Source: a virus. Taken from it: DNA of 64,000 nucleotides. The translations under genes were made by a program, and so were the position numbers. Under the pieces are notes generated by a model. It saw only the letters and a program-made list of their open reading frames with translations. It was not told where the DNA came from and did no database searches. Each line of letters begins with the position of its first letter. Position 1 is the first letter of the stretch. The stretch lies in the IMG/VR virus record IMGVR_UViG_3300045303_000221, positions 23,893 through 87,892 of that record. One strand, written 5' to 3'. Shown one piece after another: positions 31,985 to 44,400 of the stretch.

Positions 31985-32338
31985 TCAGTGCTTCCGGCCC
32001 TTGTGGCCCTTGTGGCCCTTCCCCTTGGAGTGGCCGCGGGACGAATCTCGGCGGGGTTTCGTCCCGGCCTGACGGACGGAGCGCACGACGACTCGCCGGA
32101 CGACGACGTGGACGTGGTTGACGACCCGCACCTTCTCGTGCGTGACGGTGACCGGCGGCGGTGCGGGCACGGTGACGGGCGGCGGGGCGGGCGTCGTGAC
32201 GGTGGTCGTGCGGATGATCGGCGCGGGCGCGGCCGAGGTCGCAGCGGGCTGGCGGGCGACGTGCGTGGTGATCGCCGCGCTGGTGCTGACGCCGAGTCCG
32301 GCGGCGGCGAGCATGGCTGGGATGAGCGCGCGGTGCAC
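31985..32338 (-). CDS. secreted low-complexity protein
   Basis: Signal peptide, PVTV repeats, GHKG tail; leaderless TAGTGT-N7-GTG. Confidence 0.6.
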   Translation of the reverse strand: MHRALIPAMLAAAGLGVSTSAAITTHVARQPAATSAAPAPIIRTTTVTTPAPPPVTVPAPPPVTVTHEKVRVVNHVHVVVRRVVVRSVRQAGTKPRRDSSRGHSKGKGHKGHKGRKH

Positions 32339-32445: not shown

Positions 32446-32521
32446 GCGCGGCTGGGCAAATGGTAAAGCCACCCGGTTCAACCCTCGGGAGACAGTCTGG
32501 GTTCGACTCCCAGGCCGCGCA
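32446..32521 (+). tRNA. atypical tRNA (Leu-CAA-like or pseudo-tRNA)
   Basis: Acceptor GCGCGGC/GCCGCGC; D arm GGC-AAATGGTAAA-GCC; anticodon arm CCCGG-TTCAACCC-TCGGG; T arm CTGGG-TTCGACT-CCCAG; discriminator A then CCT. Confidence 0.8.
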
Positions 32522-32522
32522 C

Positions 32523-32726
32523 CTACGGCAGAAGCGGCGGCGGCTGCTGCGTGATGGTGACCGGCGGCACGACGGTCACGGTGGTCACGACCGGGATGGT
32601 GAAGATGACCTGGCGCGGCTTCGGGGCGCTGATCGTGGTGGCGTAGATGAGGCCGACGCCGACGCCGAACACGAACAGCGCGAGGGCTGCGAACAACGGT
32701 GCTGCTATGCCGCGCGTCTCATCCAC
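32523..32726 (-). CDS. small membrane protein
   Basis: TM + Thr/Val/Pro tail; leaderless TACACT-N6-GTG. Confidence 0.55.
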   Translation of the reverse strand: MDETRGIAAPLFAALALFVFGVGVGLIYATTISAPKPRQVIFTIPVVTTVTVVPPVTITQQPPPLLP

Positions 32727-32753
32727 GGAGCGAGTGTAACGACACGGCGGCAT

Positions 32754-32783: not shown

Positions 32784-32936
32784 ATGCTGATGCTGTACCT
32801 GATCTTCAAGGCGACCGCCGCGTTCCTCATGGCGGTGTTCGTGCTCGGCCTCCTGAGCATCGCCGCGCTCGTGTGGCTGACCGTGGAGGTCGCCCGGATG
32901 ATCGCCGAGTGGCGCGGCGACCAGCGTCGCGCGTAG
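32784..32936 (+). CDS. small membrane protein
   Basis: Hydrophobic 50-aa ORF. Confidence 0.5.
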   Translation: MLMLYLIFKATAAFLMAVFVLGLLSIAALVWLTVEVARMIAEWRGDQRRA

Positions 32937-32956
32937 CGCACAGCGTGTGTTACACT
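32934..32956 (+). promoter_or_regulatory. conserved promoter copy
   Basis: TAGCGCACAGCGTGTGT-TACACT. Confidence 0.75.
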
Positions 32957-32961
32957 GGGGG

Positions 32962-33150
32962 AGTACGACGATACCAACGGTCAAGTCGCGAGTGACCAAC
33001 AGGGGGCTGAAAGATCCTTCGGGAGCACGGACCACTCCCGCCCCCGATCAACCGCGAAGGTCAGGTGTCGCTGGTTCTGACAGGCAGACGCTCCCCCCGA
33101 CCTCACCGTGTGGGGAGCGCCGCTGGGTTCGACTCCCGGCAGCGACGTAA
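32962..33150 (+). ncRNA. structured RNA ending in a tRNA-like domain
   Basis: GCGA- and UUCG-capped hairpins; 33067-33146 cloverleaf GTCGCTG/CAGCGAC with T arm CTGGG-TTCGACT-CCCGG. Confidence 0.7.
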
Positions 33151-33185
33151 CGTAGGGCGGCACCAGCCGCAGAGAGGAGCACGAC

Positions 33186-33473
33186 ATGCACGAGGGAACG
33201 TTCGTGACGCTCACCGACCTGACCCGCCTGTCGATGATCGTGAGCATGGCGGGCCGGTGCGCGAAGGTCGCACGGCAGGTGGACGGCGTTGGCATCGTCT
33301 ACGGCCAAGCTCGCTCGGTCGGCGACGAGCGCGGCAACTTCACGCCGAGCGGCGGCAACGTGATCGGCGAGTACCTGCGCGTCACCACGCGCGAGGGGAT
33401 GGAGGCGTTCTGGCCGGTCGAGGACCTGGCCGACGAGATCGCCAGCGGCCACTTCGCGGAGTACGACTGGTGA
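33186..33473 (+). CDS. hypothetical protein
   Basis: Hairpin-AGAGAGGAG RBS. Confidence 0.65.
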   Translation: MHEGTFVTLTDLTRLSMIVSMAGRCAKVARQVDGVGIVYGQARSVGDERGNFTPSGGNVIGEYLRVTTREGMEAFWPVEDLADEIASGHFAEYDW

Positions 33474-37136: not shown

Positions 37137-37159
37137 GAGCGCACATCGCGTGTTAGGGT
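37137..37159 (+). promoter_or_regulatory. conserved promoter copy
   Basis: GAGCGCACATCGCGTGT-TAGGGT. Confidence 0.65.
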
Positions 37160-37164
37160 GGCCG

Positions 37165-37421
37165 CAGACCGAGCGGTGGGGAGACGCTGGCTCGGCAGAC
37201 GGTCACCCCACGTGGCCTTTGCACACGGACTCCCCCTGAGATACTGCCCCCCGAGCAGCCCCAATACGGTCGCGGCGTCCGACCCCCCGTAGGTCGCCGC
37301 GACCGGGGTGGTGGCCTAAGATGGAGGCCGGACCCACCTCCGGGTTGCCTCCCGAGTTGCACGCTAGGGTCCACGTGGGGCTGCGGCGTTTCACGCGAAC
37401 GTCGCAGTCCCACCCTGTCTG
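37165..37421 (+). ncRNA. candidate multibranch ncRNA
   Basis: Long-range pairs CAGACGG/CTGTCTG and CCCCACGTGG/CCACGTGGGG enclose several hairpins; no credible ORF. Confidence 0.55.
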
Positions 37422-37448
37422 ACGGTTGAGTGCGTAGAGTGCTCAAGG

Positions 37449-41400: not shown

Positions 41401-44400
41401 ACGAGTTGCCGTCGGAGTTGCGGCTGTTGCTGGACGGCAAGCGACGGGTCGGTCACACGCACATGCCATCGACGCGAGAGGAGGCGGCGGCTGAGGCGGG
41501 GATCGCGCCGGAGCTTCTGACGCACTCAGATCAGTCGATGCCGTTCGGACGGGGGGCGCGGAACGACTGGGTGGGGCCGATGACGGACGCGCAGTTGCGC
41601 GAGAAGACGGTGGACTTTTACCGGGCGTTCCAGACGTTCCGCGAAGGCGCGGGCGGGCCGTTCAACCCGCTGTTCTTCTCGTCCGACACGGAGGCGCTGG
41701 CGAACGTGCATCCGTCGGAGATCCGCATCCTGCGGTTCCGGCGGAAGGCGAACGGGCACGGCTACCGGACGGCGGGGATGGAGGAGATCCGCACCGGCAG
41801 CGGCGAGGCGGTGCAGTTGGAGGACGTGCTGCGCGAGGACGCCTTCGACCTGTCGGAGGCGACGCACGAGTGGACGACGCTGCGGACGGACAAGGTGCGG
41901 GTCGGCGCTACCGAGGTGATCGGCCCGGACGTGACGACGCTCTCGTGGTGGCGCGAGGAAGCTGTGCAGGAGGCGTCCTGGCGCTCGGTGCTGCACCCTC
42001 GCGACCGGCGCGGCCGGTGGCGACACACGCTCGGGAAGCCGAAGGCGCGGAGCACGATCACGATCGACCCGGGCACGTTTATGCCGCCGTCGGGGCCGCT
42101 GGCGAATGGTCGGCCGCGCACGAGGGCGAAGACGCCGGTGCTGGACGAGACGCAGCGGATGATCCGCGACGCGCCGTTCCTCGATACCGACGTGGGCGAC
42201 GAGGTGCCGACGGAGTTCAACGTGGTGATGGCGCAGGCCGTCGTCGCGGAGGCACACCGGTGGCCGGAGTTGCCGCCGCTGACGTTCGTGCTGGGCGACC
42301 TGGAGCCGGGCGTGAAGGGAGAGTTGAGCATCACGCCGCCGGTGCCGCCGTTCCAGGAGGAAGCGTGGGAGTTGGCGCTGGACGAGAAGCTGATGGGCGT
42401 GGAGGGCGCGACGACGTTCGCGCACGAGATGGGCCACGCGGTGGACGCTGCGATGGCGCGCGACGTGGGGTATGTCGAGGGCAACAACGTGCGCGGCGCG
42501 GTCGGGAACTTCGGCTACTTCGCGTCGGGCATGGCGGCGGCCGACAACCCGTACGGCGAGGTGCTGCTCGGGCCGGAACGGTTCGCGGCGTGGCGGCACT
42601 TCCTGAAGATGGCCGTCACGCAGTCGATCGTGGACGAGATGTCGTCGCCGCCGGACTACTACCGCTCCCCGCACGAGTTGTGGGCGCGCGCCTACGCGCA
42701 GTGGGTGGCGACGCAGGACGAGGCGCTGATGGGCGAGATGCACGACGTGCACGAGCACGGCTGGCCGCAGGACGAGTGGGAACCGGTCGGACGGGCCGTG
42801 GAGCGGGTGCTGGGCGCGCACGGGCTGCTCTACGAGGGGGACGAGGCGTGGGTGGCGGAGGTCGGCCCGGAGCCTGAGAGGCGGCCTCTACGGCAGCCTC
42901 CGCGGTCGCAGATCGAGACGCCGCTCCCGCCCGTCATCCGCCAGAAGGCGGTCGCGGTGATGCACGACCTGACGCACATCGACCACAACCAGACGGGCGT
43001 GACGACGGACGACGTGATGCGGACGCACGGCTTCGCGGAGCCGGAGGGAGAGGCGCTGGCCGATGCGTTCCGGGAGGGCCTGGTCGGCGTCGGCTACAAG
43101 CTGTACGTGAGGGAGTTCCCGGTGGGCCGGGCGTGGTTCCGGGTGCGGACGGGCGAGCAGCCGCCGACGGAGCCGAACTTCTCGTGGATCGGCGAGGCGC
43201 TGCCCGACCCGCTGACGTTCGTGGTCGAGGCCCCGGATGACGAGGACGACCTGGAGTGGTTCCCGCTGGCGACGCCGGACGAGGTGATCGTGGACGGCGA
43301 GGTGATCGAGGGGCCGGACGTGACGACGTTGCCGTGGTGGGACGACGACGACGTGGTGGAAGCGGTGGACTGGCGGCCCGGCCAGCATCCTCGCGATCGG
43401 CGCGGTAGGTGGCGCGACGTGCTGGAAATGCCGAAGTCGAACGTGCTCGACAGGATCTCGGTGAAGTCAAGGGCGGAGCCGGACAAGCCGCTGACGACGA
43501 AGCTCGCGGGCCACGAGGTTCCGGTCGTGGTCGGCGAGATCGACATGTCGTACGCCACGACGACGCGCGTGGTTGCGGCGTTCGCGGCGGTCAAGGATCA
43601 TCGGTTCCCGGTGGGGTTCCTGACGATCGACCGGGACAAGCACCGGGTCGAGTTGATCTACGTGGAGACGGACAACCGGCGGCAGGGGATTGCGACGGCG
43701 CTGTACCGGGCGGGCCTGGCGCTGTACCCAGACCTGATCTTCGACGCCGACCGGACGGATGAGGGGGAGGCGTTCACGACGGCGACGGGCGGGAAGCGGG
43801 AGCGGCGCAGGAAGTTCGCGACGGCGGAGGCGCGGCGTATCGGTAGCCGGTTCCTGGGGGCGATGTACGGGGCGACGGCGGAGGACATCAAGCCGATCGA
43901 GCCGCCGCAGTCGGAGGGGCCGATCAGGGTCGCCTCGCGCTCGGGCTACCCGCCGGGCGGCGAGTGGCGGCGGGCGGTCGGCCTGGGGGAGGACGCCTAC
44001 CTGGTGGGTGGCGCTCCCCGGAACCGGATCTTCGGGGAGCCGGTGAAGGACGAGGACTTCATGGCCCTGCAGACGCCGGAGGCGATCAAGGCGGCGGCGC
44101 TGGCGGCTGGGCACACGGTGGAAGACCTGATGGTGCGCGACCGGCTGGTGGGCGTGCGCGTCACCGGGTCGAAGCTGCCGTCGGGCGGGATCGAGATTGC
44201 GCCGCCGAGGGTGGAGCGCTCGACCGGCGCGGGCCGCCACGACTTTGAGATCGTGCCGCACCCGGGGATCGGGTCGGAGACGCCGGAGGTGCTGCTCGCG
44301 GCGGACGCTGCGCGGCGCGACTTCACGTTCAACGCGCTGTACGAGGACGCGGCCGGGAACATCGTGGACCCGACCGGCACGGGCCTCGCGGATGCGCAGG

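Follow-up and report, generated by a model that had tools for sequence, protein, structure and literature searches.

A tRNA-shaped and non-decoding element behind a family-type promoter in a predicted mRNA leader of a phage from soil metagenomes

tRNA genes are common in phages, and the tRNA cluster of phage T4 includes stable small RNAs as well. RNase P, RNase Z and the CCA-adding enzymes identify their substrates by the acceptor/T-arm stack and the elbow. In the thrU-tyrU-glyT-thrT-tufB operon of E. coli a single promoter serves tRNAs that lie ahead of an mRNA, and RNase P releases the RNAs. To our knowledge, non-decoding tRNA-shaped RNAs with a promoter of their own inside an mRNA leader have hardly been described in bacteria or phages. 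Some phages carry tRNAs whose anticodon loops are altered (eLife 2023, PMC10264068), non-canonical tRNAs including tRNA-Pyl and mt-tRNA-Ser(UCN) have been reviewed (PMC7609411), and large screens list 'tRNA-like' phage RNAs (PMC10690425). The t-elements of plant mitochondria are tRNA-like signals for mRNA ends (PMC1920247). The tRNA shape described here is clearly non-decoding and lies behind a promoter in a predicted mRNA leader, a variation on the tRNA-like phage RNAs.

The element is encoded by a phage whose sequence is present in soil metagenomes. The window, that is the whole stretch of 64,000 nucleotides that was analysed, corresponds to positions 23893-87892 of an 87.9-kb IMG/VR virus record with a CheckV completeness of 74%. 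The genome has a GC content of about 70% and carries nearly all of its genes on the plus strand. No close relatives of the phage were found in IMG/VR or among the GenBank phages; a relative is represented by the 3.4-kb JGI contig L006, which encodes a terminase that is 65% identical and contains the same promoter boxes.

The element is preceded by the promoter box TAGCGCACAGCGTGTGTTACACTGGGGG (32934-32961, plus strand), with a -10 sequence TACACT at 32951-32956 and a predicted transcription start at about 32962-32964. The TAG within the box also serves as the stop codon of the gene at 32784-32936. The box matches positions 10-35 of the profile of repeat family D9 (nhmmer, 9.5 bits, E 0.064), and the promoter, which the sequence-only reading had called conserved, indeed belongs to a family, with about 19 clear copies (nhmmer E<0.01) and about 8 partial ones. 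A unit of this family was defined as a TAGCNCAC..GTGTTAYACT box whose -10 lies 6-7 nt ahead of a GC hairpin and AGAGAGG, and the family consensus reads TAGCNCACGACGTGTGTTAYACT, 6-7 nt, GCGGGG-N-CCCCGC, AGAGAGG and then ATG. At this locus the hairpin half is represented by GCGGC-ACCA-GCCGC (33157-33170, plus strand), which is followed by the ribosome binding site (RBS) AGAGAGG (33171-33177). The hairpin-RBS of 33157-33177 corresponds to profile positions 50-63 of the family and folds with -9.8 kcal/mol (z -1.93). Both halves therefore match the profile, but they are 200 nt apart here as opposed to 6-7 nt in the family, so that about 200 nt of extra non-coding RNA would precede the translation start region of a 95-aa gene. 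In L006 the homologous gene has the same hairpin-RBS, which directly follows the preceding ORF, and the RNA module is absent. The roughly 200 nt of additional promoter-driven RNA would be unnecessary for expressing the 95-aa gene. As for the family hairpin, it could act as a 5' stem-loop of the RNA or as a DNA operator, and the early promoters of the Streptomyces phage phiC31, which also carry conserved inverted repeats, may offer a precedent. Within 37138-37423 a further family-type promoter, GCGCACATCGCGTGTTAGGGT, precedes about 260 nt in which no gene is obvious and which are unlike the element at 33067-33147.

The stretch around the element is non-coding. In the flanking genes one codon phase has a GC content of at least 0.9; across 32930-33155 no phase exceeds 0.80. 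The only long ORF, 32947-33150 (67 aa), spans the region, and a gene for a small protein is one of three barely credible readings, the others being a chance fold of the spacer and an attP-type fragment of a host tRNA, under which the locus would hold no RNA feature. The position-wise GC content of the ORF is 0.60/0.69/0.63 as compared with a GC3 of 0.87-0.96 in genes, and all four of the strain SNPs inside it are non-synonymous, both of which argue against a 67-aa protein.

The first 105 nt of the predicted transcript (32962-33066, plus strand) form a leader segment that carries no coding signal and no structure above chance, and that ends in U33066. The sequence-only reading saw in it a structured 5' domain. 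The strings that it quoted are all in place, GGTCA..C-GCGA-G.TGACC at 32978-32996, GGGGGC at 33002-33007 with GCCCCC at 33040-33045, between which TCC-TTCG-GGA lies, and ACC-GCGA-AGGT at 33051-33061. The domain itself did not hold up, as the leader folds no better than chance (z +0.26) and contains a single tetraloop hairpin with a stem of at least 3 bp, TCC-TTCG-GGA, where 31% of the 105-nt segments of this sequence have at least one. The two GCGA 'tetraloops' of the leader have a closing stem of 1 bp or are really a pentaloop.

The tRNA-shaped element (33067-33147, plus strand) is 81 nt long. Its acceptor stem of 7 bp (33067-33073/33140-33146) is followed by GU and a D stem of 4 bp (33076-33079/33085-33088) with the 5-nt loop ACAGG, in which the GG is present. 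The place of the anticodon arm is taken by a long arm of 8 bp (33089-33096/33112-33119) with a 15-nt loop. A variable region of 3 nt, CCG, lies between the long arm and the T stem, which comprises 5 bp (33123-33127/33135-33139) and carries the canonical loop TTCGACT. The discriminator G33147 is followed by TAA, and CCA is not encoded. The cloverleaf of 33067-33146 that had been read from the sequence, with its stems and loops and its lack of CCA, is thus found exactly as described. When the 81 nt are folded in isolation, the minimum free energy (MFE) structure is identical to the cloverleaf at -40 kcal/mol, with a z-score of -2.52 and 3 of 200 shuffles equally stable. All 24 pairs of the cloverleaf are standard and the T loop equals the consensus. 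The element can be assigned to the plus strand because its sole G-U pair (U33124-G33138) and the T-loop consensus are valid on that strand only. The long arm folded alone is far more stable than its shuffles (z -3.46), and in the ViennaRNA fold it extends to 11 bp with two 1-nt bulges and the 7-nt loop ACCUCAC. At the core tertiary positions G8 is found instead of the near-universal U8, A14 and the GG are present in the 5-nt D loop and there is no base 26, the D stem and the long arm adjoining directly with no base to separate them. The features of a processing substrate comprise the 12-bp acceptor/T-arm stack, the T loop, the D-loop GG, a U at position -1, the UAA after the discriminator and the lack of an encoded CCA.

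The structure of the tRNA-like half at 33067-33147 is non-random. A descriptor of the tRNA top half was defined as an acceptor stem of 7 bp, in which no more than one G-U pair is allowed, that directly abuts a 5-bp T stem with a TTCRANN loop, at a total length of 68-95 nt. Applied to both strands, it finds exactly two sites in the window and no others in the 88-kb genome as a whole, 33067-33146 and 32446-32520. When the window was shuffled 300 times with its dinucleotides preserved, the average was 0.013 matches, with one match in 4 of the 300 shuffles and two in none. A chance fold might be suspected because most sequences fold well at 70% GC and the whole 189 nt, leader included, have a z-score of only -0.27; the expectation of 0.013 top halves per window speaks against it. 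An attP-type tRNA fragment agrees poorly with the presence of both acceptor strands, which are unneeded in an attP core, and searches of the 88 kb revealed neither a tyrosine nor a serine integrase. Furthermore, none of the 68 genome hits to tRNAs with the acceptor stem of the element is actinobacterial.

The element does not belong to the tRNA (RF00005), mascRNA-menRNA, tmRNA or YrlA families. With RF00005 (family threshold 29 bits) nothing is matched at E<=10, be it around the element or genome-wide, and ARAGORN makes no call on the element even at -ps90. The 'tRNA-Ala with a 168-nt intron' that ARAGORN reports with -i -ps reaches into the upstream gene, is one of 21 such calls and was discounted. 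The only Rfam match is to mascRNA-menRNA (RF01684), whose full model aligns with the acceptor and T arm and scores 27.5 bits, short of its gathering score of 42.5; the E value is 0.0024 when 701 nt are searched and 0.22 for the window as a whole. A tmRNA was rejected on the grounds that C3-G70 takes the place of the alanine identity pair G3-U70, the loop is too short for a tag and RF00023 has no match at E<=10. A bacterial Y RNA (YrlA) was rejected likewise, as RF02553 has no match at E<=10 in the genome and no Ro protein gene (TROVE, PF05731) was matched in the 88 kb; the bulge-helix-bulge motif of an archaeal-type intron is absent. The Infernal comparison with the tRNA, Y RNA and tmRNA families of Rfam, which the sequence-only reading had put forward as the check on novelty, accordingly yields no family above threshold. 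What stands of the tRNA-like non-coding RNA first proposed is a tRNA-shaped and non-coding element behind a family-type promoter that exceeds the threshold of no known family; the structured 5' domain is not supported.

The element is not a decoding tRNA. Its upper half conforms to a tRNA, with an acceptor stem of 7 bp stacking on a T stem of 5 bp that bears a T-Psi-C-R-A-type loop. Its anticodon-side arm does not, having an 8-bp stem and a 15-nt loop versus the 5-bp stem, 7-nt loop, U33 and purine 37 of a tRNA, and the alternative loop ACCUCAC has C at position 33 and not U33. Judged by tRNA geometry, an arm of 8-11 bp could not bring an anticodon to its usual distance from the 3' end. Two other roles of the loop were considered and rejected: as an anti-Shine-Dalgarno sequence, since its CCUC becomes CCCC in a strain, and as the anticodon loop of a tRNA-Glu(CUC), since the strain SNP alters the middle base of ACCUCAC.

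About 620 nt upstream of the element lies a companion tRNA (32446-32523, plus strand) that is itself aberrant. ARAGORN reports it as tRNA-??? (caac), its only call in the 88-kb genome, in which neither Rfam RF00005 nor ARAGORN finds a canonical tRNA. Its D arm is Leu-like and its anticodon loop of 8 nt reads TTCAACCC (alternatively CAA, if a U is bulged, together with C37); it has A73 and a 3' end that reads CC-T, and its T arm differs from that of the element at 1 of 17 bases. The best match within the tRNA clan is to tRNA-Sec at 22.4 bits, below the threshold. Copies of a 6-nt direct repeat, CACCTA, border the companion on either side (32440-45 and 32520-25), and it sits between the minus-strand genes 31985-32338 and 32523-32753. 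Together with the plus-strand gene 32784-32936 these encode small secreted or membrane proteins with GC3-phase support; the products of the two minus-strand genes both carry (T/V)VT-PPPVT repeats, and the third gene, which encodes a 50-aa membrane protein upstream of the promoter, appears to be leaderless behind a TAGTAT -10.

No homologue of the element was found in the IMG/VR viral contigs with an exact 22-mer and two gapped patterns, nor in the JGI metagenome contigs with a gapped pattern, and distant blastn against the GenBank phages matched only the downstream gene, in Gordonia phages. The promoter-hairpin motif led to no relative among the IMG/VR viral contigs, where nothing close to the 95-aa and 727-aa proteins was found either. 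Across the window and 19 loci the covariance model R1 retrieved only the element itself, along with generic tRNAs at 17 bits or less, and the element is absent from all of the 14 metagenome loci and two Gordonia phage loci that carry homologues of the downstream gene. Among 185,579 species genomes, tRNAs with the same acceptor stem are the tRNA-Arg(CCT) of Clostridia and the class II tRNA-Leu(TAA) of Planctomycetota; an actinobacterial tRNA with this stem occurs in 0 of the 68 genome hits. The 9-mer GGCAGACGC is common to the element and to the D loop and stem of the bacterial tRNA-Leu with the same acceptor stem. Because of this shared 9-mer there is a hint, and no more, of a Leu-type tRNA ancestry, in which the anticodon and variable arms may have been remodelled into one hairpin of similar total length.

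Such an ancestry would also suit a relic, namely a phage tRNA gene, possibly class II and Leu-like, that a rearrangement has deprived of its anticodon arm and that now drifts without a function. The shared 9-mer, the equally aberrant neighbour at 32446-32523, the G8 and absent anticodon loop, and the failure to find a homologue, with even the closest relative (L006) lacking the element at the gene, are all consistent with this reading. It is nonetheless considered unlikely, as drift should strike stems as often as loops and the four helices are perfect, the T loop is of the consensus type and the long arm retains its excess stability over shuffles. A relic would also not be expected to have a family-type promoter of its own, and no strain SNP damages a helix while one improves one.

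These strain SNPs were taken from near-identical strain contigs of four other soil runs, and with n=6 they are too few for statistics. Two lie in the leader (33026 C>T and 33034 A>C) at opposite ends of a predicted 9-nt loop. Within the element 33103 T>C falls into the apical loop of the long arm, and 33124 T>C in the T stem turns the only G-U pair into G-C. The remaining two are 33156 G>A directly 5' of the RBS hairpin and 33164 C>T in the loop of that hairpin. Four of the six are thus in predicted loops and none breaks a pair, and for the two inside the element the chance expectation of the pattern is about one in four. The SNPs are compatible with the fold and do not count as evidence for it. 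The loop of a leader hairpin and that of the long arm contain the complementary sequences CACGG and CCGUG (33026-33030 and 33106-33110), a match that is not above chance and that the SNP at 33026 (C>U) would retain as U-G.

In the context of the full leader the acceptor stem has a competitor. The leader strand 32966-32975 (plus strand) is predicted to pair with 33064-33073 and would sequester the 5' acceptor strand before processing. This helix is preferred in the MFE structure of the full leader and in folds of the growing prefix, and the probability of the acceptor pairs in the full-leader ensemble is 0.00-0.02. The best full-leader fold that contains the cloverleaf lies 2.7 kcal/mol above the MFE in a nearest-neighbour model that ignores tertiary contacts. 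The two pairings could constitute a regulatory leader that switches the processing, stability or translation of the mRNA, in keeping with two mutually exclusive folds so close in energy and with a leader helix that can form before the 3' acceptor strand is transcribed. A switch of this kind is very unlikely, however. Complementarity of 7-10 bp over 100 nt is unremarkable at 70% GC, the 5' domain overall is no more stable than its shuffles, and neither a ligand, a protein nor conservation points that way.

The downstream gene (33186-33473, plus strand; GC3 0.94) encodes a 95-aa protein for which the AF2 model (pLDDT 90.8) predicts a helix and a small SH3/Tudor/WYL-like barrel. Its PDB matches are weak only (BrxR WYL domain, E 0.04) and no functional link emerged from them. 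Homologues are scattered through actinophage-like contigs, at the 14 metagenome loci and in the Pupper group of Gordonia phages (2 loci). At 44-79 nt ahead of the homologues elsewhere there are hammerhead type II-like cores (contigs L015 and L016) or tRNA genes (L017). The cores (CGAAAC...GUC...CUGAUGA), which score 24-27 bits and hence below the 37 of Rfam, lie 44-50 nt before the homologue in the two contigs. L015 has one at 495-552; in L016 they are located at 351-405, 986-1047, 1435-1489, 1780-1834 and 2296-2348, with a cut copy at 1-25. Lying between most of the small genes of L016, they look like ribozyme punctuation of a small-gene array. In L017 an uncalled tRNA-like sequence (574-650) with intact acceptor and T arm, a z-score of -2.9 and weak partial matches to YrlA and tmRNA is situated between tRNA-Glu(CTC) and tRNA-Asp(GTC), 79 nt before the 95-aa homologue.

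The occurrence of hammerhead-like cores and tRNA genes ahead of the homologues favours a purely cis-acting role, in which the tRNA shape is only a cutting signal for RNase P and RNase Z that sets the 5' end of the downstream mRNA. The leader would be trimmed, the mRNA would begin just before its protective hairpin and the excised RNA would have no role of its own. That the element ends 9 nt ahead of the family hairpin-RBS is in support of this, and the t-elements of plant mitochondria are a documented precedent (PMC1920247). Punctuation is possible, though not likely. About 19 other units put the promoter directly on the hairpin and need no processing, which makes a 200-nt insert a costly solution. 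The element also retains its D arm and a perfectly paired 8-bp long arm, although the acceptor/T minihelix is most of what RNase P and RNase Z require. The hammerhead matches are sub-threshold, and their placement between most genes of L016 means that adjacency to the homologue may be incidental.

It is tentatively proposed that 33067-33147 is a tRNA-derived, non-decoding module that is released by RNase P and a 3' nuclease and acts as a mimic of the tRNA top half. This released mimic or decoy ranks first among the readings considered, ahead of punctuation, the relic, the leader switch and, last, the chance fold, attP fragment or peptide. A role of the released RNA is favoured over punctuation because the other units form the same mRNA 5' end without processing, and also because the D arm and the long arm have been kept perfect. 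Several observations weigh against the proposal: the searches retrieved no homologue, neither RF00005 nor ARAGORN reports the element, G8 and the 5-nt D loop depart from a regular tRNA core, and in the full leader the energy model favours the competing helix. We infer the transcription, both cleavages, the addition of CCA and the role in trans. A transcript from about 32962 would comprise the 105-nt leader, the tRNA-shaped element, the hairpin with AGAGAGG and the 95-aa gene. The acceptor/T-arm stack is intact, as are the T loop and the D-loop GG. Cuts at 33066/33067 and after 33147 would therefore be expected, and the element is probably excised by tRNA-processing enzymes. Host RNase P would cut between U33066 and G33067, and a 3' nuclease of the kind that acts on CCA-less precursors (RNase Z or an equivalent) would cut after G33147. 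CCA could then be added to the product by the host enzyme or by the PolyA_pol/HD domain of a 3915-aa ORF. Within this ORF, at 43989-45356, a PolyA_pol head domain (E 1.3e-13) is accompanied by PolyA_pol RNA-binding and HD domains, a combination that is the architecture of CCA-adding enzymes. Neither of the two tRNA-like RNAs has a complete CCA encoded in the phage genome, and the phage carries this CCA-adding-type domain (43989-45356).

Processing would give rise to three products, a leader fragment, the 81-nt tRNA mimic and an mRNA whose 5' end would lie 9 nt upstream of the family hairpin-RBS. The trimmed mRNA would keep the same 5' hairpin-RBS as the other transcripts of the phage. With a rod of 8-11 bp in place of the anticodon arm the mimic would be unable to reach a codon, and it may instead engage tRNA-binding proteins, for example as a decoy or sponge. 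A more specific version holds that the RNA is a dedicated trans-acting mimic, either a decoy or sponge for tRNA-targeting defence nucleases of the host or for further tRNA-binding proteins, or a substrate reserved for the CCA/HD domain, and that its release is gated by the leader helix; this version is distinctly unlikely. Should excision yield a stable RNA, this would be a candidate decoy in the contest for host tRNAs that involves anticodon nucleases and tRNA repair, and the decoy idea is set in a phage that also carries a CCA-adding domain. It would equally be a counterpart of mascRNA or the t-elements in a virus of bacteria. As it stands the element is a singleton, and its value lies in being a well-defined candidate.

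Among known systems the aberrant phage tRNAs share with the element that they are phage-borne; it lies beside an odd tRNA, its acceptor and T arms and D-loop GG are intact and its CCA is unencoded. Its compact core, with a 5-nt D loop, a 3-nt variable region and a lengthened stem at the anticodon position, recalls tRNA-Pyl and mt-tRNA-Ser(UCN) (PMC7609411). The aberrant phage tRNAs and non-canonical tRNAs, however, keep a 7-nt anticodon loop on a stem of 5-6 bp and still decode, whereas the element has an 8-11-bp arm, a 15-nt loop (or a 7-nt loop without U33), G8 and no score with the tRNA model. Like tmRNA and YrlA it is non-decoding and combines a tRNA-like acceptor/T-arm module with a long helix at the place of the anticodon arm; YrlA differs in that its acceptor-like stem is closed, with the ends of the RNA forming the Ro-binding stem. 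With mascRNA/MEN-beta and the t-elements it shares a tRNA-shaped module within a longer transcript, for which excision by RNase P and RNase Z would be expected, and as in those RNAs the flanking RNA would owe its end to the cut. mascRNA and the t-elements are eukaryotic nuclear or organellar RNAs and the element is from a phage; common descent is not implied. mascRNA is located at the 3' end of a long non-coding RNA, whereas the phage element is found in a 5' leader. In the tufB operon, as at this locus, one promoter drives a tRNA-type RNA and then a protein-coding sequence, but the upstream RNAs of that operon are ordinary decoding tRNAs.
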